A stretch of DNA of 64,000 bases, taken from NCBI GenBank assembly GCA_965235115.1, contig OZ249436.1, forward strand, positions 37,202,001 through 37,266,000. The letters run 5' to 3'. The stretch comes from Laetmonice hystrix. Lineage: Eukaryota. Under the pieces are notes generated by a model that was not told where the DNA came from, searched no databases, and saw nothing but the letters and a program-made list of their open reading frames with translations. A program made the position numbers and the translations under genes. Below are positions 5,330-64,000 of this stretch, one piece after another; within the stretch, counting starts at the first letter, position 1; every line of letters starts with the position of its first letter.

Positions 5330-8300
5330 ATGCCACCTGATCATCAGGCGAGGAAGATGCTGTTGTCAAGGTGGTTGGTGGAGGATGGCGAGGCAGATGG
5401 TCAGGGTGGTCAGGTGACATGTGCGGGGACCCCGACACATGCCAACTGATCACCAGGTAGAAGATGGTGAGGAAGATGCTGTTGTCAAGGTGGTCGATGG
5501 AGGATGGCGAGGCAGATGCTGTTGTCAAGGTGGTCGGTGGAGGATGGCGAGGCAGATGGTCAGGGTGGTCAGGTGACATGTGCGGGGACCCCGACACATG
5601 CCAACTGATCACCAGGTGGAAGATGGCGAGGAAGATGCTGTTGTCAAGGTGGTCGATGGAGGATGGCAAGGAAGATGCTGTTGTCAAGGTGGTCGATGGA
5701 GGATGGCGAGGAAGATGCTGTTGGTCAGGGTGGTCAGTTGACATGTGCGGGGACCCCGACACATGCCAACTGATCATCAGGTGGAAGATGGCGAGGAAGA
5801 TGCTGTTGTCAAGGTGGTCGATGGAAGATGGCGAGGAAGATGCTGTTGTCAAGGTGGTTGATGGAGGATGGCAAGGAAGATGCTGTTGTCAAGGTGGTCG
5901 ATGGAGGATGGCGAGAAAGATGATGTTGTCAAGGTGGTCGATGGAGGATGGCAAGGAAGATGCTGTTGTCAAGGTGGTCGATGGAGGATGGCGAGGCAGA
6001 TGGTCAGGGTGGTCAGTTGACATGTGCGGGGACCCCGACACATGCCAACTGATCATCAGGTGGAGGATGGCGAGGAAGATGCTGTTGTCAAGGTGGTCGA
6101 TGGAGGATGCCGAGGAAGATGCTGTTGTCAAGGTGGTCGATGGAGGATGGCGAGGAAGATGCTGTTGGCCAGGGTGGTCAGTTGACATGTGCGGGGACCC
6201 CGACACATGCCAACTGATCATCAGGTGGAAGATGGCGAGGAAGATGCTGTTGTCAAGGTGGTCGATGGAGGATGGCGAGGCAGATGGTCAGGGTGGTCAG
6301 TTGACATGTGCGGGGACCCCGACACATGCCAACTGATCATCAGGTGGAAGATGGCGAGGAAGATGCTGTTGTCAAGGTGGTCAATGGAGGATGGCAAGGA
6401 AGATGCTGTTGGTCAGGGTGGTCAGTTGACATGTGCGGGGACCCCGACACATGCCAACTGATCATCAGGTGGAAGATGGCGAGGAAGATGCTGTTGTCAA
6501 GGTGGTCGATGGAGGATGGCAAGGAAGATGCTGTTGTCAAGGTGGTCGATGGAGGATGGCAAGGAAGATGCTGTTGGTCAGGGTGGTCAGTTGACATGTG
6601 CGGGGACCCCGACACATGCCAACTGATCATCAGGTGGAAGATGGCGAGGAAGATGCTGTTGTCAAGGTGGTCGATGGAGGATGGCGAGGCAGATGGTCAG
6701 GGTGGTCAGTTGACATGTGCGGGGACCCCGACACATGCCAACTGATCATCAGGTGGAAGATGGCGAGGAAGATGCTGTTGTCAAGGTGGTCGATGGAGGA
6801 TGGCGAGGAAGATGCTGTTGTCAAGGTGGTCGATGGAGGATGGCGAGGAAGATGCTGTTGTCAAGGTGGTCGATGGAGGATGGCGAGGAAGATGCTGTTG
6901 TCAAAGTGGTCGATGGAGGATGGCGAGAAAGATGATGTTGTCAAGGTGGTCGATGGAGGATGGCAAGGAAGATGCTGTTGTCAAGGTGGTCGATGGAGGA
7001 TGGCGAGGCAGATGGTCAGGGTGGTCAGTTGACATGTGCGGGGACCCCGACACATGCCAACTGATCATCAGGTGGAGGATGGCGAGGAAGATGCTGTTGT
7101 CAAGGTGGTCGATGGAGGATGCCGAGGAAGATGCTGTTGTCAAGGTGGTCGATGGAAGATGGCGAGGAAGATGCTGTTGTCAAGGTGGTCGATGGAGGAT
7201 GGCCAGGAAGATGCTGTTGTCAAGGTGGTCGATGGAGGATGGCGAGAAAGATGATGTTGTCAAGGTGGTCGATGGAGGATGGCAAGGAAGATGCTGTTGT
7301 CAAGGTGGTCGATGGAGGATGGCGAGGCAGATGGTCAGGGTGGTCAGTTGACATGTGCGGGGACCCCGACACATGCCAACTGATCATCAGGTGGAGGATG
7401 GCGAGGAAGATGCTGTTGTCAAGGTGGTCGATGGAGGATGCCGAGGAAGATGCTGTTGTCAAGGTGGTCGATGGAAGATGGCGAGGAAGATGCTGTTGTC
7501 AAGGTGGTCGATGGAGGATGGCAAGGAAGATGCTGTTGTCAAGGTGGTCGATGGAGGATGGCGAGAAAGATGATGTTGTCAAGGTGGTCGATGGAGGATG
7601 GCAAGGAAGATGCTGTTGTCAAGGTGGTCGATGGAGGATGGCAAGGAAGATGCTGTTGTCAAGGTGGTCGATGGAGGATGGCGAGGAAGATGCTGTTGTC
7701 AAGGTGGTCGATGGAGGATGGCAAGGAAGATGCTGTTGTCAAGGTGGTCGATGGAGGATGGCGAGGAAGATGCTGTTGGCCAGGGTGGTCAGTTGACATG
7801 TGCGGGGACCCCGACACATGCCAACTGATCTTTAGGTGGAGGATGGCGAGGAAGATGCTGTTGTCAAGGTGGTCGATGGAGGATGCCGAGGAAGATGCTG
7901 TTGTCAAGGTGGTCGATGGAGGATGGCGAGGAAGATGCTGTTGTCAAGGTGGTCGATGGAGGATGGCAAGGAAGATGCTGTTGTCAAGGTGGTCGATGGA
8001 GGATGGCGAGAAAGATGATGTTGTCAAGGTGGTCGATGGAGGATGGCAAGGAAGATGCTGTTGTCAAGGTGGTCGATGGAGGATGGCGAGGCAGATGGTC
8101 AGGGTGGTCAGTTGACATGTGCGGGGACCCCGACACATGCCAACTGATCATCAGGTGGAGGATGGCGAGGAAGATGCTGTTGTCAAGGTGGTCGATGGAG
8201 GATGCCGAGGAAGATGCTGTTGTCAAGGTGGTCGATGGAAGATGGCGAGGAAGATGCTGTTGTCAAGGTAGTCGATGGAGGATGGCAAGGAAGATGCTGT

Positions 8301-8500
8301 TGTCAAGGTGGTCGATGGAGGATGGCGAGGAAGATGCTGTTGTCAAGGTAGTCGATGGAGAATGGCAAGGAAGATGCTGTTGTCAAGGTGGTCGGTGGAG
8401 GATGGCGAGGCAGATGGTCAGGGTGGTCAGGGGACATGTGCGGGGACCCCGACACATGCCACCTGATCATGAGGCGGAAGATGGCAAGGCAGTTGTCAGG
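5330..8500. repeat. Composite tandem array: 40-bp units interspersed with 14 hairpin-containing units of about 79 bp; 319-bp higher-order period
   Basis: 40-mer gatggcgaggaagatgctgttgtcaaggtggtcgatggag. Hairpin core cagttgacatgtgcggggaccccgacacatgccaactg near 5411, 5570, 5735, 6013, 6178, 6297, 6423, 6588, 6706, 7025, 7344, 7790, 8108 and 8428. Confidence 0.95.
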
Positions 8501-8580: not shown

Positions 8581-9945
8581 CTAACGTGACGTCGAACTCC
8601 AGTGTAGCTGAGGGTCGTCGGGTCTTCTCGGTGAACCAGGGATGTCGCAAATGCCAAAGCATAGCATTGGAGTTGCCACTTTGCTACATAGTTCCTGGAA
8701 CGACTTGAAGCCAGGAGGTGGTGGGGTGGTGTCTACTGGTGACGCAGGGGCGGTGGGACACTTGCTTGGTTGAGGGCACACAGGGGGCGGAGTAGAAGGC
8801 AACATTTCCATGGAGGAGGTGTCGCCAGGAGGTGGTGGGGTGGTGTCTACTGGTGACGCAGGGGTGGTGGGACACTCGCTTGGTTGAGGGCACACAGGGG
8901 GCGAAGTGGAGAACATTTCCATGAGGGAGGTGTCCCGTGGTGCTGGTTCAGGGAATGGACGAGGCCGTTCGGAGAGCGGTGCCCTTCGCCGAGGTGCGGG
9001 GACTGGCTTTCGTCGAGGCTTGGGTACCGGTGGGGCAGTTGGTACCTCCTTGGTGGCAGTTTCAGTTGCCAGGTCGGGCTCGCAGACGTCCTGGAGGGAT
9101 TCTTCGGTCAGGATGTGCTGCGATGCACCTGGGAATAGGCTTTTGGGGGGAGGTTTGCCGAATACGACCTCATAAGGGCTGCACTTCGTCGTTTCATGTA
9201 GTTCCGTATTCATCGAGTACATGATCCGTGGCAACCAGGACGCCCAGGGACATTCACCTTCTGCTTCAGCTTTCAGGGCTGCAATTTTCTTTTGGACCGT
9301 CCTGTTTCCACGCTCGACCACACCTTGTGACTGGGAGTGGCGGGGACGCCCACTGACGAAGGTGACGTCGCCGCTCCACCTGGTGAACAAAGCCTGTACA
9401 ACTTTGTTGACAAATTCGCGTCCGTTGTCAGAATGGAAGATCCTGGGGGGACCAACGTAGGCCAGGACACGTTCTTCGAGCATGGTTGCCACCTCATTGG
9501 CCGACTTGCCTTTTAGGGGGAAAAGCACGTGAAACATGTAATGGAACTCCCCGTCTGGAGAGTGCCTCATGTCGATGAGGTCCACTTGGATACGTTGGAG
9601 GAAGTCCTCCGTGATGATTGGCTTAAGGGGGGGCCTTGCAACTTTTAGTGCGGACAACTGGCAGGTGGGGCATTCCTTGCAGAAGGCCTGGACATAGGGG
9701 CGAAGGATCCCGTAGTAGCTCTTCCGGATCCACTCATAGGTCTTCCGGTACCCACTGTGCTGCAGCTCGTGCACGTGCACCTGCTGCACAATGTCGTAGA
9801 TTTGGGATTGTCGGGCTACGCGTTTGAAGCGGGATCCATCCTTTTCATCAGATGGAACCACGAGCGCGTCATGGAGTCCAAGGGCCGGCAAATTCACAAG
9901 CTCAAACTTGCGCTTCTTGAGGTAGCCCTTGAAGCGGTGTGACAC
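8581..9945 (-). CDS. Ginger integrase/transposase exon 2 (HHCC zinc finger, DDE integrase core, Pro-rich tail; SCAND3/KRBA2-like family)
   Basis: HHCC motif HELQHSG...CKECPTC. Catalytic motifs QVDLID, FHSDNGREF and SQGVVERGN; SPYEVVFG motif. Acceptor attag|GTG at 9946/9945. The tail has a duplicated 39-aa PPVCPQPS..TTPPPPG unit. Confidence 0.9.
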   Translation of the reverse strand: MSHRFKGYLKKRKFELVNLPALGLHDALVVPSDEKDGSRFKRVARQSQIYDIVQQVHVHELQHSGYRKTYEWIRKSYYGILRPYVQAFCKECPTCQLSALKVARPPLKPIITEDFLQRIQVDLIDMRHSPDGEFHYMFHVLFPLKGKSANEVATMLEERVLAYVGPPRIFHSDNGREFVNKVVQALFTRWSGDVTFVSGRPRHSQSQGVVERGNRTVQKKIAALKAEAEGECPWASWLPRIMYSMNTELHETTKCSPYEVVFGKPPPKSLFPGASQHILTEESLQDVCEPDLATETATKEVPTAPPVPKPRRKPVPAPRRRAPLSERPRPFPEPAPRDTSLMEMFSTSPPVCPQPSECPTTPASPVDTTPPPPGDTSSMEMLPSTPPPVCPQPSKCPTAPASPVDTTPPPPGFKSFQELCSKVATPMLCFGICDIPGSPRRPDDPQLHWSSTSR

Positions 9946-24690: not shown

Positions 24691-24854
24691 CTGCAATTTG
24701 TATGTTCCATTACCGTAAGTCGATTACCTTGTGGAATGTCACTACGAATGATTGTCAGCACAAGACCTAACGATTAAGCAGTAAATGGGAATGACATAAG
24801 GGCATGATCTTGTACAGTAGTCCATATATCTACAGTCTAAATATTTATACGTAC

Positions 24855-25151
24855 TGGTATTGGCTGGGGACACAATGAGTTCGATTTCGTCCCTTAGGAA
24901 CGTGTCTATTTTGTCCTGACATCGATAATGGCCAGAGTCGCCCTGACGAACGTTCAGAACGGTCAGCAGGCTTGTCGACGTACTCTCGGTCGAGTCTCGC
25001 GAGTACGAGATGATCACTCGAGAAGATGGCGTCGCAGGTCGACCTTTGTGGAACCACGTCAGCTCGGCGGAGTCGTTACCGCTACATTTTATGGTGACTG
25101 CTCCACCCTCTCCAACAACTGTCATGTTACCGTCCGGCTGTGTTATCTGAA
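24855..25151 (-). CDS. Multi-Ig protein exon 3 (Ig2)
   Basis: tgcag|TT...ACC A|gtacgt, 297 nt. VTIKC..LTWFHKG..DSGHYRC. The acceptor has a weak pyrimidine tract. Confidence 0.85.
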
Positions 25152-25789
25152 CTGCATTTTTTATGAGACCAATGAAGGAGCAATTTGGAGAACGACGATT
25201 CCATAGATGTTAAGGACACCAAATGGTCCCATGCACATATCTATCCAGCACATGTTTAATTAATATGTATCATTAGTTAGTGGTCAACCATGCCTAGAAC
25301 ATTCTAGAACTGTCATTTCTGTAAATAGTTTCAGCTAAATCTGCTTAACAAGACAGACTTCATGTCAAGTAGGCTATATCTTGGGCTATATGATACAGGG
25401 ATGTATCCACTAAGCCGGCCAGTCAGGCGGCCACCCGGTGTCAAAATCTTAACATGGTATAGGCTAACTTTTATGGTTGGCTATAGTATACAAAATTAGT
25501 CATACATACTGCATTATATTTGTATGTGTTCACATTAGGAAACTGATATTAGAGCCGTGCATGTTTTTGGACTCGGGTATTGAATACGGCCTTGGTATTA
25601 CGACAGCATTGGTCTCGTCAGAATTACACGAAATAAATTACCTTGAATCGCGACCGAACTAACCATTGTTTGCATGAAATACAAGTGTAATGTCCATAGT
25701 ATTAGTAAACAAAAAGCGATGTTATAAAGCAAAGATTCCCCAAATTATCACCGGATCCATTATATAAATAACTTTAATCAGGTCCGAAC

Positions 25790-29443: not shown

Positions 29444-30463
29444 ATAGAGGCCAGATAATAAATTATAGGGTTTCTTACTCACGCCGACATTACTCGTGGC
29501 TTGTGCCAGTTCTTCCCATTCCGTTATTTTTAATGTTTGAAGGTATTTTGTGGATTAGGTTGCCTAGATTCCACCTGATAAAGTCGTGTTTATAATCATA
29601 GACGCCATATCGACGCGTGCTGCTTTGACTTATTCAAACAACACCAGATTACACCACTGCTGTCAGTGTGTTGTTCCAGTAACAGAGCTGCATTATTAGT
29701 TATCGCGAGTGGCACTCTGATCTAGGCGACAGTTTATAAAGAGGTCGGAAAGAGAAATATTGAGGAATAATCTACCGCTAAGGAATATAAATCCACAAAA
29801 AAAATATTTTGATTACAGTTTGTACTTCGGTAAGAGCAAGCGTGTACGTGACACACAATATTTTCTTTTCCTTCAAGATGTTACCTTTTCCATAATAACT
29901 TAGGCCGCGTTCACATTGGAGGCTTGTTCCGACGCCTACCCGCTATTTCGGGTGGCCACCTGTAGGCCTATATGAACGCAATCATCCGACATAACTTACG
30001 TCGAGTAAGCCCCCGAGTTACATCGGGTAAATTGGGGGCATAGCTATGTCGGTAGACTACTTACGTCGCGTACCTTCAATCTGAACGCTCGCTTGCCAAC
30101 ATAGTGCACCATAGTGCACCATTTTTTCTTAAAAATCAATCTTGAAATGACCTTTTCTCTGCAAAATAGATTCCGTCTAAACAAACCCCCTATTTAGACT
30201 CCAACATATATATACGTTTGACATGTAAAATTACTTTTGTCTACGAAATAAGGTATGGCTAACACAGCTCTAACTTTGACTTTCTTACGCCGCATAAGAA
30301 GATAAAGACCCCACAAAATTAACGAAACACGTATAGACCCTGTTGGGTTGTTCACATTAATTGTTTCTTGGTAGGCCTGCCTAGATAAGGTAATTTCTTT
30401 TCAGCTGTCAATCACTTACCAATCAGCTGTTAATCACGTACCAGTCAGCTGTTAATCACTTAC

Positions 30464-30781
30464 CAGTGGGCAAAGAAGTCGGACCTCCAGGCAAGCGCAC
30501 GCGAACGTGATCATAGTCGTAGAAGTTGGCCGTGTTACTGCATTGATACCTGCCCGCAGCGCCATCTGCCGCCCGGCGCACAGACAGCACGAGCCTGGCG
30601 CCACCTGGAGTGTTGAAAGGTAACAACCTCCACTGCGGCCCACCGTTTGTCACGCGCCGTCCATTGCGGTACCACTGGAGAGGCTCGTCACTGTCGGACG
30701 AACACGTCAGTGAAAACCCCCGACCACGCTGGACTAGGATCGTGCCCGCGCCCTTGTTGGCAATCGTCACCTTTCCGTGGA
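30464..30781 (-). CDS. Multi-Ig protein exon 2 (end of signal peptide and Ig1)
   Basis: ttttacag|TC...ACT G|gtaagt, 318 nt. VHG-KVTI..FSLTC..LQWYRNG..AGRYQC. Confidence 0.9.
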
Positions 30782-32340
30782 CTGTAAAATATAGGGCATT
30801 CCACGGATGGCAGGGATGGTTCAATAGCTGGGACTTTACAAAATGACTGTAGATCATGGGATGTCCCTGTTGTGTCATAAATAGGCTACAGAAATGGGCT
30901 AGGCTATAGACTCATCAGGATAGCCTAGATGTAGGCCTATAAATTATTGGTAGGCCTAAATCACAACATTATAAAATAATTAGGCCTAGACCTCTCTATG
31001 TTTGTTTGGCCTTTTTATAGGGAACCTATTTGATTGATTTATTGAAAAGTAATTAGGGCTAGCCTAGATCTAAACGGGCAACAGGCCTAGGCCTAATTAG
31101 GGCCTAGAGAGTCTAGGTTCGTTAGGTCGCCAGAATTCTAAATGTCACCCCTCCCTTAGGCTATCTTCAAAAGTTAAACAAGAAATGTGCATAAAATTAA
31201 TGTAGCAAGGTCCATTTGGTTAAGGTAAATGTCCGAATAAAAACTTATATGTCGAAACGCTGGCATCAGAGCATGCTCGCGTCCCCTTAGATCTATTGGT
31301 CCGCATTTAGCTCGGAAGTATAGGCCTATAGGCCTACCCCTCCATATCCTGACCACGATACTTCCGGGCCTGATAGCTCATCATATAGGCCCACTGGGTG
31401 TACACTTCAGATCATCTCATGGTTACAAGATCTCTTACGACATTTCAGACATTAAAATTTATATATATTGATCTATAATAGACTCCTCCCTATCAATGTT
31501 GGTGACCGAGAAGAAACATATATAGGGGCCTAATGATCGACTGTAGGCCTATAAAATATACAAATTCTAATTTGTTGTTTGTGTTGACTTTATAATAGTT
31601 CTTGACTTTTAACTTCACCCCCTTCCCCACCCCCATTTTAAAACGAGCGTTATACCTCAATTCTAAACGTTAAACTCTTACAATCATTCAATTCCATCAG
31701 TCGTAAAATCAAGAAGTTGTCTTCCTATAGGAGGAAAGTAAAAAGGGAATGCATGCGATGGTCCATTCCACTGACAAGGCCCTTGATGCCTCTTAACCAT
31801 ATGTTTATGGCATCAGATTTAGTGATAATAAACATTTTGCAGACTCGGACTTACTTTAATGACATCGGGTCGCATACATGTGGAGGGCGTCCAGTCAAAA
31901 AGAGCTCAGTGTCCGGACTCCGGAGTATAGAACATTCTGAGGCGCACCTATAGGTGAAGGTTCGACCGGAGGGGGGGGGGGGGGCTGGCGCCCATATAGT
32001 GGCTTTTTATGAGCAGATGCCATTTTAAGTTGACAGAAATGGGAATAGCTCATCAACGTTCCCTTGCGAAACTCGGTCTGCCCCCTCCCCCAACAATAAT
32101 GTACCCTCGGGCATGTTGGATCTAGGCGTTTTGAACACGATGTCGTGTTGAAGCCCATGACAGTGTCATAAATGGACGGATCCTTTCTGCCTTAGGGTCC
32201 TCCAAACCTTTATAAACTCGAATTAAACTCTAGCGGTTAACTTTGCCCTCGTTTAAATGACAAGGCAGAAAAGATTCACGTCATGCCCGTTTAACCATTG
32301 ACCATAACCAATTTCGAAAGAAAAAGAAGTTTCAACTCAC

Positions 32341-37338: not shown

Positions 37339-37733
37339 TCACACAAGTGACTCTCGATCTTCCTTAGTCCCTCCTACGTAGCAGTCTGATTTAGATTTTT
37401 TCAATGAAACCCCTTTGTCTTTGCTGTTGCTTTTCGTCGTCAAGGCGTCCGCAAGCGACATTTCCGAGCCGCTAGATGGCAGTGGCGTCGTCTGCATGAT
37501 GAGTTCGTTAACTGTGTTGATGTCCTCCTCAAGTTCGGCGCGGTTGCTCACTATGCTCGGGTTTTTACCGATTTTGTTCAGGCGTTCTGCTGCCACACTC
37601 TCCATGGTTCTACGCATGACTGGATAGTGTTCCAGGACGGCGTTGAAATGTTCCACGGACAGTGAGAACAGGTTACAATACGTCTCAGCACGCACGCTCG
37701 CAACTCGTTTTGCATTGGTCAATAAACAAATCT
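37339..37733 (-). CDS. HCN: HCN channel terminal coding exon (end of CNBD and C-terminal tail)
   Basis: ttccag|AG completes [32 protein letters not shown] (phosphate-binding cassette). Ends ...DRESLV*. Confidence 0.95.
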
Positions 37734-48852: not shown

Positions 48853-48999
48853 CTCTCTGAGACATTCATTGAGTTCGCCTAGAATACTATCTTCGTCAAA
48901 CATCTTTCCTTGGTATCGGTGCTCATAATAATCTGATATCCGCTGGCGGAGATTTCTGGGGAGCTTTCGGTACACCATGTATTCTTCAACTTGTTTAAA
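48853..48999 (-). CDS. HCN: HCN exon: C-linker
   Basis: gacag|TTT...GAG|gtaagt, 147 nt. [14 protein letters not shown]...[13 protein letters not shown]...ELNECLRE. Confidence 0.95.
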
Positions 49000-51959: not shown

Positions 51960-52627
51960 ATGGTAGCGAGGCTATTTATGGTAGCGAGGCTATCAATGGT
52001 ACCGAGGCTATCAATGGTACCGAGGCTATAAATGGTAGCGAGGCTATCAATGGTAGCGAGGCTATAAATGGTAGCGAGGCTATCAATGGTAGCGAGGCTA
52101 TCAATGGTAGCGAGGCTATCCATGGTACCGAGGCTATCAATGGTACCGAGGCTATCAATGGTACCGAGGCTATCAATGGTAGCGAGGCTATCCATGGTAC
52201 CGAGGCTATCAATGGTAGCGAGGCTATCAATGGTAGCGAGGCTATCAATGGTACCGAGGCTATAAATAGTACCGAGGCTGTCAATGGTAGCGAGGCTATA
52301 AATGGCACCGAGGCTATCAATGGTACCGAGGCTATCCATGGTACCGAGGCTATAAATGGTAGCGAGGCTATCAATGGTAGCGAGGCTATCAATGGTACCG
52401 AGGCTATCCATGGTACCGAGGCTATAAATGGTACCGAGGCTATCAATGGTAGCGAGGCAATCAATGGTAGCGAGGCTATCAATGGTACCGAGGCTATCAA
52501 TGGTACCGAGGCTATAAATGGTACCGAGGCTATCAATGGTAGCGAGGCTATCAATGGTACCGAGGCTATCAATGGTACCGAGGCTATCAATGGTAGCGAG
52601 GCTATAAATGGTACCGAGGCTATCAAT
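51960..52627 (+). repeat. 18-bp minisatellite, about 37 copies, in HCN intron
   Basis: atggta(g/c)cgaggctatca units. Confidence 0.95.
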
Positions 52628-53039
52628 AGTAACATACCATTGTATCTTAAAGAGGCCGAGCAAATGTTTCCTATCAACCAGCCCCCATTTAGCATTTAAG
52701 AGGGAACCACTGTGCTAATGTATATCCTATACATTGACTGCTGACTGGGCGTTAAACACCAACTACTCACTCACTCACTCCTATACATTGATACAATAAT
52801 TACTGATGGTGGCCCCCAGCCTTGAGGAAAATACGATGCTCATTCCTTCAAATTCGGTCTGAACTGGTCAATATTTACAAACGCAGCCACAACTATGTAC
52901 TTGTATTGTTTACATTCCGAAACTTAGCTCCTCTATTTCTCATATTTGCAGCTACTGACAGACTAAATATATATGCTAACGTAACATCAGAGCTACTACT
53001 GAGACGCCAGCTACTTTTACGGGGGTGGGTTTAAGGATA

Positions 53040-55501: not shown

Positions 55502-57190
55502 CAGTGACCCCTGGAACCGGTAAATATTTGAGTAGGTGGGCTGGCAGTGATCTCTGAAACCGGTAGATATCTGAGTAGGTGGGCTGGCAGTGATCTCTGG
55601 AACCGGTAAATATTTGAGTAGGTGGGCTGGCAGTGATCTCTGAAACCGGTAAATATTTGAGTAGGTGGGCTGGCAGTGATCTCTGAAACCGGTAGATATT
55701 TGAGTAGGTGGGCTGGCAGTGATCTCTGGAACCGGTAAATATTTGAGTAGGTGGGCTGGCAGTGATCTCTGGAACCGGTAAATATTTGAGTAGGTGGGCT
55801 GGCAGTGATCTCTGAAACCGGTAGATATTTGAGTAGGTGGGCTGGCAGTGATCTCTGGAACCGGTAAATATTTGAGTAGGTGGGCTGGCAGTGATCTCTG
55901 AAACCGGTAAATATTTGAGTAGGTGGGCTGGCAGTGATCTCTGAAACCGGTAAATATTTGAGTAGGTGGGCTGGCAGTGATCTCTGAAACCGGTAAATAT
56001 TTGAGTAGGTGGGCTGGCAGTGACCTCCCTAAAACGGTTAAACCGGTAAATATGTGGGTCGGTGGGCTGGCAGTGACCTCTAGAACCGGTAAATATGTGG
56101 GTCGGTGGGCTGGCAGTGACCTCTAGAACCGGTAAATATGTGGGTCGGTGGGCTGGCAGTGACCTCTAGAACCGGTTAAATATGTGGGTCGGTGGGCTGG
56201 CAGTGACCTCGGGAACCGGTAAATATGAGGGTCGGTGGGCTGGCAGTGACCTCGGGAACCGGTTAAATAGGTGGGTCGGTGGGCTGGCAGTGACCTCTAG
56301 AACCAGTAAATATGTGGGTCAGTGGGCTGGCAGTGACCTCTGAAACCGGTAAATATGTGGGTCGGTGGGCTGGCAGTGACCTCTGAAACCGGTAAATATG
56401 TGGGTCGGTGGGCTGGCAGTGACCTCTGAAACCGGTAAATATGTGGGTCGGTGGGCTGGTAGTGACCTCTGAAACCGGTAAATATGAGGGTCGGTGGGCT
56501 GGCAGTGACCTCTAGAACCGGTAAATATGTGGGTCGGTGGGCTGGCAGTGACCTCTAGAACCGGTTAAATATGTGGGTCGGTGGGCTGGCAGTGACCTCG
56601 GGAACCGGTAAATATGTGGGTCGGTGGGCTGGCAGTGACCTCTAGAACCGGTAAATATGTGGGTCGGTGGGCTGGCAGTGACCTCTAGAACCGGTTAAAT
56701 ATGTGGGTCGGTGGGCTGGCAGTGACCTCGGGAACCGGTAAATATGAGGGTCGGTGGGCTGGCAGTGACCTCGGGAACCGGTTAAATAGGTGGGTCGGTG
56801 GGCTGGCAGTGACCTCTAGAACCAGTAAATATGTGGGTCAGTGGGCTGGCAGTGACCTCTGAAACCGGTAAATATGTGGGTCGGTGGGCTGGCAGTGACC
56901 TCGGGAACCGGTAAATATGTGGGTCGGTGGGCTGGCAGTGACCTCTGAAACCGGTAAATATGTGGGTCGGTGGGCTGACAGTGACCCCTGAAACCGGTAA
57001 ATATGAGGGTCGGTGGGCTGGCAGTGACCTCTAGAACCGGTAAATATGTGCGTCGGTGGGCTGGCAGTGACCTCTAGAACCAGTAAATATGTGGGTCGGT
57101 GTGCTGGCAGTGACCTTTGAAACCAGTAAATATGTGGGTCGGTGGGCTGGCAGTGACCTCGGGAACCGGTAAATATGTGGGTCGGTGGGC
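55502..57190 (+). repeat. 43-bp minisatellite, about 39 copies, two variant blocks
   Basis: Block A (atatttgagtaggtgggctggcagtgatctc) runs to about 56025; block B (atatgtgggtcggtgggctggcagtgacctc) follows. Confidence 0.95.
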
Positions 57191-58995: not shown

Positions 58996-59214
58996 CTTCT
59001 CCCTGTAAAGTCGCTTGGATGTATCGAAGGACTGGATGAGCGTTGTGGCGTGGCCGACGAACAGTGCATAGCATGTGGCGCCCGTCAGCATGCTGATCAT
59101 GGTGAGCCACACGTCAGTGGTGCTTTGCGGGGGGTAGCGTCCGTAACCGATGCATAACATGTGCGATAGTGCCTTAAATAGGGCCCACGTGTATTGGTCC
59201 GTCCATTCGGCATT
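58996..59214 (-). CDS. HCN: HCN exon: pore helix, selectivity filter and S6
   Basis: tgcag|AAT...AAG|gtaaat, 219 nt. [21 protein letters not shown]...[29 protein letters not shown], containing the HCN-type CIGYG filter. Confidence 0.97.
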
Positions 59215-61873
59215 CTGCACTAGCACAAAAAGAATACGTCAAATAAACTTCCCACCCGGAAGAAACTAACAACTGAGAAACTTGGCCGAAATCGTCGAAA
59301 TTGCCTTAAATTAAAAGGATGTACCTTGCATTGTGCACGGTGTTTTCCCCGTTTCACAGTATATAGTATAAATTATTCATATATCATATAAGAACCCTTT
59401 TTGTGACGATTGCACGTTTATGAAATGATCTTCAAAGGATTCAAACGCTATTGGTGTGGCTGGCGGTATACTTTCTGATCAAGTAAAACAGAATACAACG
59501 CTATACCTTCGGTATACCAAATGATGCATTGTTGCTTCCGCCATTGATAACTTGTCCAAAATTTCATCTCATCTCAAACTTGTTATTTTAATCTATACGA
59601 CGAGGATCCAAAATGGCATTGATCTGTCATTTTACTCCACGCTGTATCGAACCCAATTTCTGACATCACATCCCCCAGCTATCCATCCCTAGGAAACCCT
59701 AGGGCATGATGATGGCAATGGTAAGTTTAGGCGGCAGTGTTATCAAGCCAACAAGGCTGTGTTCTGTGTTGGTTAGAGATAATGCGCCCTGTACAAGCGC
59801 CGACACGTATGGTTCGGGAGGCTAGTGTCCAAAACGAGGCTCGAGGTTACATGAGTGACGCGGCCGGCATCCGTTCACCGGAAGCGTGACAAGTCTCTCT
59901 CGGCGTTCGAGGTCATTCGTTGAAGACGCCCCCGTCGCACTGTTACTTGTAGGCACGATTTTGGCCGGCGAATCGATCGCTCTGGCCACCCTGACCAAGG
60001 TCGAGCGGGTCCACTTTTAGCGTTGAGCATGATACGGAGGAATATCATCTAAAAGCGGACTGGTATTATGGGATAGAAAATGTTGGCACCCAAAACGTTG
60101 GGAGTTTGTCTTTGATTTCCGCACGAGTTCAAACCCCGAAAGCAGGACATACTATGAAAGAAAAGGAAAGAAAGAATGCTGCGGGCGAAAAAGGACGACA
60201 CATTTAGAGGGCAGCATAATTTTAATTAATTTAATAATTTAAATAACAAAAATATTATGCATAGTAATATCATGCACATAATAACAATGTGCTATACAGT
60301 TCAAAGTATGGTTAGCTCCTAGTCGAGGCTACACCTATGACCGCGGATCAATAGTCTGCACATTACAGACTCAATAACAGTATTCGGTTTTATACTTTAC
60401 ACTACCGCCTGGTTTACCAGAGGAAGGGGGCACTGAATCAGAAATCTAAGTGCTCCAGCTTGGGAGGAAGTTATAAGCGCACGAGGACTTGCGACCGAGT
60501 TGTCTACTTAATAAAGGAAGGGAAGGGAGTTTGAGGGTTGGCGCACAAGATGGCCATGCGCTATATACCGGCGACATTCAGAACTAGCGGCACGCTTAAA
60601 GCTTAGCTTGCATGGGAATTCAACCGCTGTTCAGTTTCAACTGCGCCAAGCAACAATACATCATTGAGCCGTGTACACACACCATTCAGTATCCTTGCCA
60701 CGAATTGAAGAGCAACTTTTTATACACTCAAATAAAATCGAGTGCCGATCGATACAATCTTATTTCCATTAAAGACTCTGGAAATATCGATCTCTTTTCA
60801 ACTATCTTCCCGTATCAATACCACGTTGGACTTACCATAGTTCTGGCTGTATAAACAAATCACAGTAGTAGCAGTGGCAAGGTATGAATGTTAGAGGGTT
60901 GGTCATGTTGAAGCGGTATAAACATTTGCAGCAGAATAGACAAGAAGGTAATGATAATTATATGCTAGTACATGATGGCGTTAAATATCAGGTTAATTTC
61001 AAACACTGGCACGATCTGTCATGATTGGGATCACATACAGGAAGTGTCAATTATAAACTGACAAACACATTGTCGCACGTGAATTTTCCCCCGTACCTGA
61101 TCTGGTGTTAACAAAAAGATTTTAAAAGTTCTTTTTTTAAATTACCATGTATCTAACTTCTTTTGATGGAGTGACCACAGAAAGATCGTTATTTCACGTA
61201 CGACTGCAATGTGCCTGTCGAACAGTTAAACTCACAAGCAAACACTGAGATTAAGGGTTATACCAACCGGAAGAAAATTTAAAAAAGATTTTAAAAACTA
61301 AAAATTCCGGGACGGTTGGTAAAACAGCAACCCATGCCCGACAAAAAAATGTGGGGTGAAATAAGATTTCTTAGGTTTGACGTCAGGCTACAAGCAAGGT
61401 CAGTATTGTGAGGGGATAAACCTGCATGTGGAATCATGCATATTTGGTATTGAAATGAGACTTTGTGGATTGGGAGGAGGGGGGGATTCAACTATAAAAG
61501 TCAAGCGTAGTCTGATCGTGGCCATGCTGATCTTTGCATCATCCTTCCGTGTAACAGTCCATGTTCCTCATAGTCATGTCCCATGAAAAGATTTAACACG
61601 TTCAGGGGAAGTATCAATGCCGCATTGTTCCCCAATCAAAGGCTGCACTCGACATATCGTCACCTCGCCTTGGTGTTTTCAATGAATGGTGGAGTGAATG
61701 CGTATTTTAGTGCACAGCCAGTAGATTGATGCGTGTGAAATCTTTATAAATCGGTTGCCTTTGGACGGAATGAATGGAAACTGGATCTGGATGTGGTTAG
61801 AATGCTCTTTCATGCTGAAAATAAACGACCTTGTCTATGGGGCCAATGTTCGGATCTTATTCCCTAGCCATAC

Positions 61874-62023
61874 CTGTAGTTCGTTTATTGCTATCCACGA
61901 GTTAGATGGAAAGTCTTGAAGCATTGGCACCAGGTACTGGAGGCAACCATTCCAGTGTCCTAACAGCAGCATCAGGCAGCACAGATTAAAAATCCGCATA
62001 AACATCCCGGCTACGTTGAAGAA
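61874..62023 (-). CDS. HCN: HCN S4-S5 linker/S5/turret exon, variant B
   Basis: ttttcag|TTC...CAG|gtatgg, 150 nt, phase 0-0. [50 protein letters not shown]. Confidence 0.93.
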
Positions 62024-63122
62024 CTGAAAAGCAAAAAGATTCAAACGAACCTAGTATTCGATTTCAAAAGGCAGGTTTGAATAGAACTGGCCCAGCACTG
62101 ATCGTCAGCACACGAGCTCGGAAGTGGACCGTGGTGCACACACAGTACTGCAGCTTTTCTCTCCCTTTTTTAAAAATATGACTTACATAATTTGATGTTT
62201 CGGATGGGATAATTACATCTTTTGACAGAAGGGCTTCGTTTCACTGCCTGTCATCTGACCCACCAGGTGCTTCGGTTTTATGCCTTCTTTCAGTTCCACG
62301 TGCTGCATACTGTACATGTGTTTTTTAATCAGTGAATTCTGATGTGAAAAATTAACATGACACAATAGAATGCACATGTGTATTCACCGAAACGTCGAGT
62401 CTTATACACAACTGTCTGCAAGTTCTTCCTTGAAGCAGAAAAATACATCGCCGGTGCTGACGAGATGCAGAAAACCGTTGGCATGACGACTTCGACTCCG
62501 GGGAATGTCTTTTTACAACGAGGGTTGAATTGAGAAGAACAGTAGTTTTTGGGAGTAGGAAGGGGGGGGTTGTCTACGGAGAAGGATCGTGCACCTCTGA
62601 CGAGACATGCTGCGTAAAAGATGAATGGAAAGGAAGCATGAATCTGCACACCTCTCAATGGCAATGTGATGATTGGGAGCGGTATTTGGAAAGCAGGAAA
62701 GTTTCTCCAGCTTAACCAGCTTGTCCATCTCACAATTCCCATTTTTTTGCCAATGCCTTCCGATCATGTTTGCCGTCGTGATCTGTATGCTTGAGAGTAA
62801 AACGGGAGAGAATACGATGTTAACGCCCGTTATATCACTTAAACGTAATTGTAGGGATAAATAGGAGAAAATATTGACTCGATCATGACGCAAATCAGAT
62901 TCGAACATTTGCGCGGAGGGAGTGTCCATTCCTGCGTCAGGTATAAAAAAAAGCAACCAAAAAAAAACAACTCTGGACTAGTATTGAAAGGAGGATGCAC
63001 GCCATCCGTGGTCTTTGGAGGGGGGAAAACACACTTAATACTAGCCGCGTTAACGGCACAACTGAACTGCATGTTTGACGCAAGCACATGACCATCCCTT
63101 TACCACACTGAGGTAGGCATAC

Positions 63123-63272
63123 CTGTAATTCATTAATCGCTACCCAGCTATCGCTTGGCACGTCTTGCATCATTGGAACCAGCCACTGCAGACAGCCATT
63201 CCAATGGCCCAACAGCAGCATGAGCGCTACCAGGTTGAAGATTCTCATAAATTTACTAGCCACCGTGAGGAA
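63123..63272 (-). CDS. HCN: HCN S4-S5 linker/S5/turret exon, variant A
   Basis: ttgcag|TTC...CAG|gtatgc, 150 nt, phase 0-0. [50 protein letters not shown]. Confidence 0.93.
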
Positions 63273-64000
63273 CTGCAACCAACAGAGCAGAATGCTACAC
63301 AAGGTCCAAGCACACACTCAGCAAACACACTTTTTCCTATCGTTATCTTGCATCATTCTGTGTCTCTCTTAGGCTAGTAGCGGGTTTTCTGAGACAAAAC
63401 GGGTAACACACGCACTTATCTATCAAATCATCCTTTCAGACCCCATGCCATTCACAAAATGCAGGCCTAATAGTATTTCATTGATTTTCTTTTCCACTGT
63501 TCTTTTCTTTGCCACCGTTAAACAATTTGATTTTTTCACCAAAAAAAAAGTGCATATCCGAATGACATGGAAACGGCTGCCAATAACGTGACATGTATAA
63601 AGGCATGGGCCCCTTGGGATAGGAATTATAACTTATCCTCATACCTGCTTCAGCCGATCAGTTGATGCCTTCCCATGGATTAGGCTTGCAGTGAACTAAA
63701 GCCGCATTTACATAGGGTTTAAATGTCCCATTAGATTATATAACATATAAATCAAATCCCCTACTCCGCTTGTCTGTCTGCCTGTCTCTCTCTCCCTCTC
63801 GCTCTCTGTGGTGGGCATCGCATGAACTTCAGAGTGTTTCTATATCTGGTGTCAGCTACATACTAAAACATGCGCTGTCTTATCTTAACCATAATGGTGC
63901 AGTGGGAAATCTCGCGACCTTTTTACCAAGAGGTCTTAGTAAAATAAAGAACAAGTGTATATGTATACCATAACAGTAAATCATAAACTCAGTAAGTCAC

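Follow-up and report, generated by a model that had tools for sequence, protein, structure and literature searches.

Tandem S5 exons, putatively mutually exclusive, in an annelid HCN channel gene

We analyzed 64,000 nucleotides of the genome of the annelid Laetmonice hystrix (contig OZ249436.1, positions 37,202,001 to 37,266,000; hereafter, the window), which lie within a 73.8-Mb contig of a 627-Mb genome. The minus strand of the window carries these parts of an HCN channel gene:

63123..63272, minus strand: exon A, encoding the last part of the S4-S5 linker, S5 and the beginning of the turret, with Lys-7 and Trp-30
62024..63122, minus strand: the A-B intron (1099 nt), with the closest upstream AG 27 nt ahead of the B acceptor and without an element conserved across independent lineages
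61874..62023, minus strand: exon B, encoding the same segment as A, with Met-7 and Tyr-30
58996..59214, minus strand: single-copy exon for the pore helix, selectivity filter (CIGYG) and S6, common to both forms
48853..48999, minus strand: C-linker exon, single copy in this genome
39698..39941, minus strand: first exon of the cyclic-nucleotide-binding domain
37339..37733, minus strand: last coding exon, with the stop codon

Exons A and B are each 150 nt long, in phase 0 at both ends, free of stop codons and bordered by AG before and GTATG after, and they lie 1099 nt apart between the S4 exon and the pore exon. These coordinates and this anatomy reproduce the original prediction, as does the protein identity of 39/50 (DNA identity, 103/150). 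Both exons match HCN1 residues ~289-336 (E ~1e-15), from the end of the S4-S5 linker through S5 to the start of the turret, and the structures matched by each were exclusively those of HCN1, HCN3 and HCN4 (15/15 per exon). We followed the gene 120 kb past the window and mapped ten coding exons, all of them open; 14,083 nt separate the end of the S4 exon from A downstream. In profile scans of each exon, S5 appeared twice between the S4 and pore exons and the other eight coding exons scanned appeared once each, in agreement with the earlier view that the downstream exons are single-copy and that the whole gene had not been duplicated. The guess that further variants lay past the window edge failed, because the scan, 120-kb extension included, revealed only these two S5 copies between the S4 and pore exons and no third copy or other duplicated exon in this gene.

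A tree of the channel backbone, built without the S5 exon, placed the gene among annelid sequences (100/99), with Capitella, Ridgeia, Helobdella and Intoshia. Its S1-S6 core exons are open, and a Logan open reading frame (ORF) with 96% backbone identity (P0158) contains the Ion_trans_N, Ion_trans and cNMP_binding domains. The gene appears to be the annelid's canonical HCN gene, for which membership in the family predicts opening by hyperpolarisation and modulation by cAMP. A compact and divergent HCN-like paralog (L007, G000:C1:19856076-19859207) shares this exon layout; its one S5 exon matches A and B at 20/50 positions each and carries Lys at position 7. Three tandem HCN matches at G000:C4:23345722-23357437, with long open frames (481-641 aa, 28-31% identity), are apparently intron-poor HCN/CNG-like genes. 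Within the window, the neighbouring gene downstream of the channel has immunoglobulin-domain exons on the minus strand (24745-25209 and 30459-30911). A 454-codon open frame (8584-9945, minus strand) matches an integrase zinc-binding domain and, weakly, an integrase core; it is probably a transposon and adjoins a 3-kb tandem repeat (5456-8428), and the intron after the pore exon holds two minisatellites (55502-57190, a 43-nt unit repeated 39 times, and 51960-52631, an 18-nt unit repeated 37 times).

A and B differ at 47 nucleotides, 28 of them at third codon positions (dN 0.21; pS 0.81, which is saturated), and their flanking introns are unrelated. Among 42 loci fetched with B as the query, five (L020, L021, L029, L044 and L045, from approximately three independent lineages) carry an A-then-B pair with AG/GT sites, although the A exon of L045 is cut by the contig edge; the A-B introns of the paired loci span 813-1587 nt. 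The same arrangement was seen in siboglinid records (Ridgeia and Lamellibrachia) and in P0005, so that the pair recurs in annelids. Nonsynonymous divergence was low between A exons (dN 0.07-0.11, four comparisons) and between B exons (0.06-0.09, five comparisons) and reached 0.13-0.25 in cross comparisons, with pS at 0.65-0.94 throughout. Exon B is identical to its orthologs at 43-45/50 positions (42/50 for one of them), and a tree that groups the A and B of this species as a clade was rejected (p-AU 0.034). The orthologous pairs in the same order, the low dN alongside saturated silent sites and the rejection of the A-plus-B clade together indicate that the duplication is old and that both copies have been maintained under purifying selection, as originally proposed. 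The pair could even predate the annelids, as nemertean protein models carry a Met-type exon and mollusc protein models a Lys-type exon, a pattern that such an origin would fit. The 50-column exon tree is mostly unresolved, however (87/79), and the earlier origin stays a lead because an annelid-only origin of the pair was not rejected (p-AU 0.22).

Indirect evidence for either/or use of the two exons came from relatives. The ORF P0158 reads from S4 through B to the pore, and a second Logan ORF (P0025, the sister row to this gene, 100/92) reads from A to the pore, its S4 junction being absent; neither contains intron sequence, from which we infer an RNA origin, and they derive from different animals. 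The leech-like loci L028 and L031 have B alone across the S4-to-pore span, L056 has an A-like exon alone across the same span, and L049 has a mixed Lys/Phe exon alone from S4 to the pore. L046 and L047 pass from A to the pore with no B between; most other loci with one copy do not extend far enough to rule out a second. On the pore and C-linker exons, L028 groups with the B-type Helobdella 63471 (97/91) in a tree from which L053 dropped out and which left out Intoshia and L051/L058 (identical to L056), and three of the four Helobdella paralogs examined as protein models are A-type and one is B-type. That the leech-like paralogs keep one exon each indicates that either exon alone would suffice for a channel gene. 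These paralogs are a case of splice isoform separation, in which each retains a different ancestral exon. Gene models with S5 copies in series exist for Ridgeia, Bulinus and Macrostomum and in an older model for Tigriopus, yet the current RefSeq annotation resolves the latter into either/or isoforms of equal length. We read the in-series models as putative prediction errors.

On these sequence comparisons, we judge it highly probable that A and B are tandem-duplicated, mutually exclusive exons of the annelid's canonical HCN gene. The two exons very probably exclude one another, and both forms are very likely made in this species. In each transcript, either A or B would be spliced between the S4 and pore exons, and the two resulting subunits, equal in length, would be the same outside the S4-S5 linker, S5 and the turret; mixed tetramers would also be possible. 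The earlier proposal that one gene makes two isoforms by an exon swap has therefore gained support from the single-exon forms of relatives, whereas the difference in gating that it attached to the swap is a matter of inference from the residues discussed below.

Other fates for the pair were weighed against this reading. Exon B, the likelier of the two to be vestigial or silent in this species, does have a few unusual residues (Phe-2, Asn-3 and Cys-15), but such a loss is improbable given its intact splice sites, its 42-45/50 identity to orthologous B exons, its dN of 0.06-0.09 at saturated pS and the S4-B-pore ORF of a close relative (P0158). Frequent inclusion of A and B together, to give a non-conducting or dominant-negative subunit, would be compatible with the open A+B frame and with the in-series gene models. 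In the architecture of HCN channels, however, an additional S5 helix in series would invert the topology of the pore. The RefSeq revision in Tigriopus and the single copy held by both annelid Logan ORFs (P0025 and P0158) also speak against joint inclusion, which we regard as very improbable. An assembly artefact or a recent segmental duplication has a negligible chance of being correct. A single 5,085-nt DNA contig reaches from 59130 to 64000 at flat depth and includes both exons, although the three runs of reads examined share a single sample, possibly the one from which the assembly itself was made. The variants listed (at least 40 SNPs and at least 12 indels) include none within an exon, and we set them aside as evidence. 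The saturated silent sites and the unrelated flanking introns argue against an artefact or recent duplication as well, and the existence of orthologous A-B pairs in other annelids effectively refutes this reading.

The original prediction also held that neither reading frame nor simple crowding of splice sites could enforce exclusivity, and both parts stood. The A and B forms are open frames of equal length and the A+B and skip-both products are likewise in frame, so that all four outcomes are available and frame-based decay cannot act. Features of steric exclusion were absent from all six loci: the A-B introns measure 813-1587 nt and the AG-free zone before B is short, with the closest upstream AG 14-57 nt from the B acceptor. 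The position of this AG argues against a distal branch point for B, and none was found in the six loci by the measure of the AG-free zone. In Dscam-type exclusion, conserved and competing stems between intronic docking sites and a selector flank the exons. We considered pairing between intron segments, for which the strongest candidate in this genome has two arms:

63083..63098, minus strand: arm of a candidate RNA stem, 25 nt after the A donor, pairing with 60547..60562
60547..60562, minus strand: second arm of this putative stem, on the downstream side of B

This 16-bp stem would loop out B; it was matched by 1/60 shuffles and was one of 18 tests. It has no counterpart in the five other loci, whose introns are too diverged or truncated for covariation. 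Two of the 18 targeted tests stood out (the stem in this genome, 1/60, and one upstream of A in L044, 0/60), but they lie at different places and are thus not conserved, and the best stems overall were near shuffle levels. The interval 62024-63122, proposed earlier as a place to map conserved pairing, and its flanks yielded no stem conserved across the five orthologous loci, and the introns of this genome had no significant match to those of the same five loci. Among the orthologs, L020 and L021 have one intronic block in common (E 8e-12) and the L020 and L044 introns share a weak pyrimidine-rich AG motif (E 0.045). An acceptor-like, pyrimidine-rich AG occurs at ~62933, approximately 190 nt into the A-B intron, and similar AGs lie 175-300 nt after A in several loci (L020, L044 and L045), perhaps by chance, or possibly as a decoy site or small exon. 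An active splicing switch between A and B is plausible, and an A+B product could be removed by protein quality control. Our best guess is that exclusivity would come from regulated choice of splice sites combined with loss of any A+B product.

Comparison of eight exon pairs separated the residues that define each class from those peculiar to this species. Position 7 is Lys in 6/6 first exons with data and Met in 8/8 second exons, and position 30 is Trp in 8/8 first exons and Phe or Tyr in 8/8 second exons. Position 3 is also fully class-specific (Thr/Tyr versus Ser/Asn) and position 41 nearly so (Asp in 7/8 first exons versus Asn in 8/8 second exons). The HCN1 equivalents of positions 7, 30, 3 and 41 are A294, F317, D290 and D328, respectively. 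Among the differences that had been listed for the pair, Lys/Met and Trp versus Tyr thus proved to be conserved by class, whereas VA/CC, L/F and V/F are confined to this species among the eight pairs.

Several of these positions fall in a segment that has been studied in other HCN channels. In HCN1, D290 contacts K412, W281 contacts N300, and R297 contacts lipid and S6 (PMC10317503). The same study places the earlier cysteine bridges of PMC3434101 on Y289, L291 and A294. Among those bridges to the C-linker, the ones formed at position 364 locked the channel open or closed with the clearest dependence on state; the sequence in which the three positions occur led us to equate 364 with HCN1 A294. 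The linker also shapes the cAMP response in HCN4 (PMC8294335), and roles of PIP2 have been raised as a possibility for its basic residues (PMC4640657). We think it rather likely that the A and B forms differ in gating, in which case the difference would most likely come from Lys versus Met at the foot of S5. This residue would face the C-linker and inner-leaflet lipids, while the coupling residues equivalent to R297 and N300 are kept in both exons. The charge change at position 7 is thus a plausible gating dial.

Either/or use could also serve, with a lower but appreciable probability, a difference outside voltage gating. Contact with lipids or auxiliary subunits, trafficking, stability and sensitivity to drugs are candidates, with the Trp or Phe/Tyr residue at the outer S5 end as one possible route; the difference might also be nearly neutral. 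The identity of the R297 and N300 equivalents in both exons is in keeping with this alternative, as is the distance from the gate of one of the two sharpest differences. Furthermore, molluscs pair Lys-7 with Phe-30 and arthropods have Val-7, so many combinations work. On the other hand, Lys versus Met is fixed (6/6 first and 8/8 second exons) at a gating-sensitive position, and the long retention of both exons argues against near-neutrality. We favor a difference in gating. The coupling of sensor to gate in HCN channels is still debated, and a deeply conserved either/or swap, confined to the coupling segment while the rest of the subunit stays the same, amounts to a natural controlled experiment and directs attention to two residues, the equivalents of HCN1 A294 and F317.

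On the features tested, the pair belongs to the tandem duplicated exon substitutions of ion channels, which are enriched and convergent in voltage-gated channels (PMC9741552). Like those events, it consists of homologous tandem exons of equal length, is ancient, resides in an ion-channel gene and is convergent across animal lineages. HCN is absent from the main text of that study and from its supplement text (15,271 characters, possibly incomplete), and the ten Cav events described there all hit different exons, whereas in HCN it is apparently the S5 exon that was duplicated time after time. Among invertebrates, the nearest analogue is the 12a/12b pair of Cav3 (PMC7382465; see also PMC9694082). 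In this protostome channel, too, mutually exclusive exons lie close to S5 and the pore, are used in a tissue-specific manner and have a lysine as the key switch. However, 12a and 12b are of unequal length, change an extracellular loop and alter ion selectivity (PMC7382465), unlike the HCN exons, which are of equal length, contain S4-S5 linker sequence together with the whole of S5 and have a predicted effect on gating. Tandem exon substitution is an established principle in ion channels, and the HCN S5 case is an addition to it, made more notable by the apparent recurrence of duplication at this one exon and by the partition of its two versions among leech paralogs. We found no report of alternative HCN S5 exons in a search of the literature outside subscription journals, although isoforms of this kind are present, without being named as such, in the database annotations of Tigriopus and Elysia. 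Ouyang et al., in 2007, reportedly described splice variants of the crustacean (lobster) Ih channel (PIIH), an instance of one invertebrate HCN gene diversified by splicing. The decapod isoforms examined share one S5 exon and vary instead in linker inserts and the pore exon.

Splice isoform separation after gene duplication was defined in vertebrates (PMC4494069); the leech-like paralogs resemble those cases in retaining one ancestral exon each, and the accessible text of that study does not mention HCN. Capitella has been described with one HCN gene and leeches with 7-8 that differ in expression, and the passages available do not link the leech genes to an ancestral exon pair (PMC7992859). 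Our reading suggests that annelids described with one HCN gene would have two core channel types, and it offers separation of old splice forms as an explanation for part of the leech expansion. The leech paralog enriched in P/N neurons best matches Helro1|98055 (PMC7992859), which carries an A-type exon in its protein model. The connection of the A-type exon to the P/N-neuron paralog and to sag current is testable but weak, because three of the four Helobdella paralogs examined are A-type.

Duplication of the S5 exon appears to recur in other invertebrates. The Tigriopus RefSeq isoforms X2 and X3 (XP_059081373/4, both 1180 aa) have alternative versions of this exon, as do the annotated isoforms of Elysia crispata (KAK3766088 versus 089/090). 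In the exon tree, the two Elysia versions pair with the two copies of Bulinus (95/86 and 97/82) and the Tigriopus pair groups among arthropod sequences; the Tigriopus and Elysia pairs apparently arose by separate duplications. Among the best 150 matches of a profile search, 17 have two matched stretches, and nine of these are arthropod-like ORFs that read through spacers of 8-44 codons between the copies, with the canonical and divergent copies in two different orders. Introns this short would favour steric exclusion in those genes. Macrostomum models have three S5 copies, two with Lys and the last with Val. Ixodes P0041, with two identical copies, was discounted as a duplication.

A tentative synthesis, which we consider possible though doubtful, is that evolution has repeatedly used the S5 exon as a dial for tuning invertebrate HCN channels, with at least four duplications (in annelids, heterobranch gastropods and two arthropod-like arrangements) and a triplication in Macrostomum. 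The Lys/Met pair would perhaps descend from a spiralian ancestor, with molluscs keeping Lys and nemerteans Met; the residue at the foot of S5 would reset voltage or cAMP gating by cell type, and leeches would have turned a choice of splicing into a choice of paralog. Bivalve and copepod isoforms (P0171-P0204, P0239 and P0255-P0268) optionally carry basic inserts immediately ahead of the S5 exon, for which no homologue was found in this gene. A search of the S4-to-pore interval for homologues of 17 S4-S5 linker inserts from molluscs, nemerteans and arthropods gave only short chance matches, mostly on the wrong strand. The C-linker, the surface contacted by S5, provides a second candidate exon pair: its exon is single in this genome and in 9/9 other loci checked, but is tandemly duplicated in L021 (9637-9783 and 9852-9998), as two copies of 147 nt with AG/GT sites separated by a 68-nt intron.
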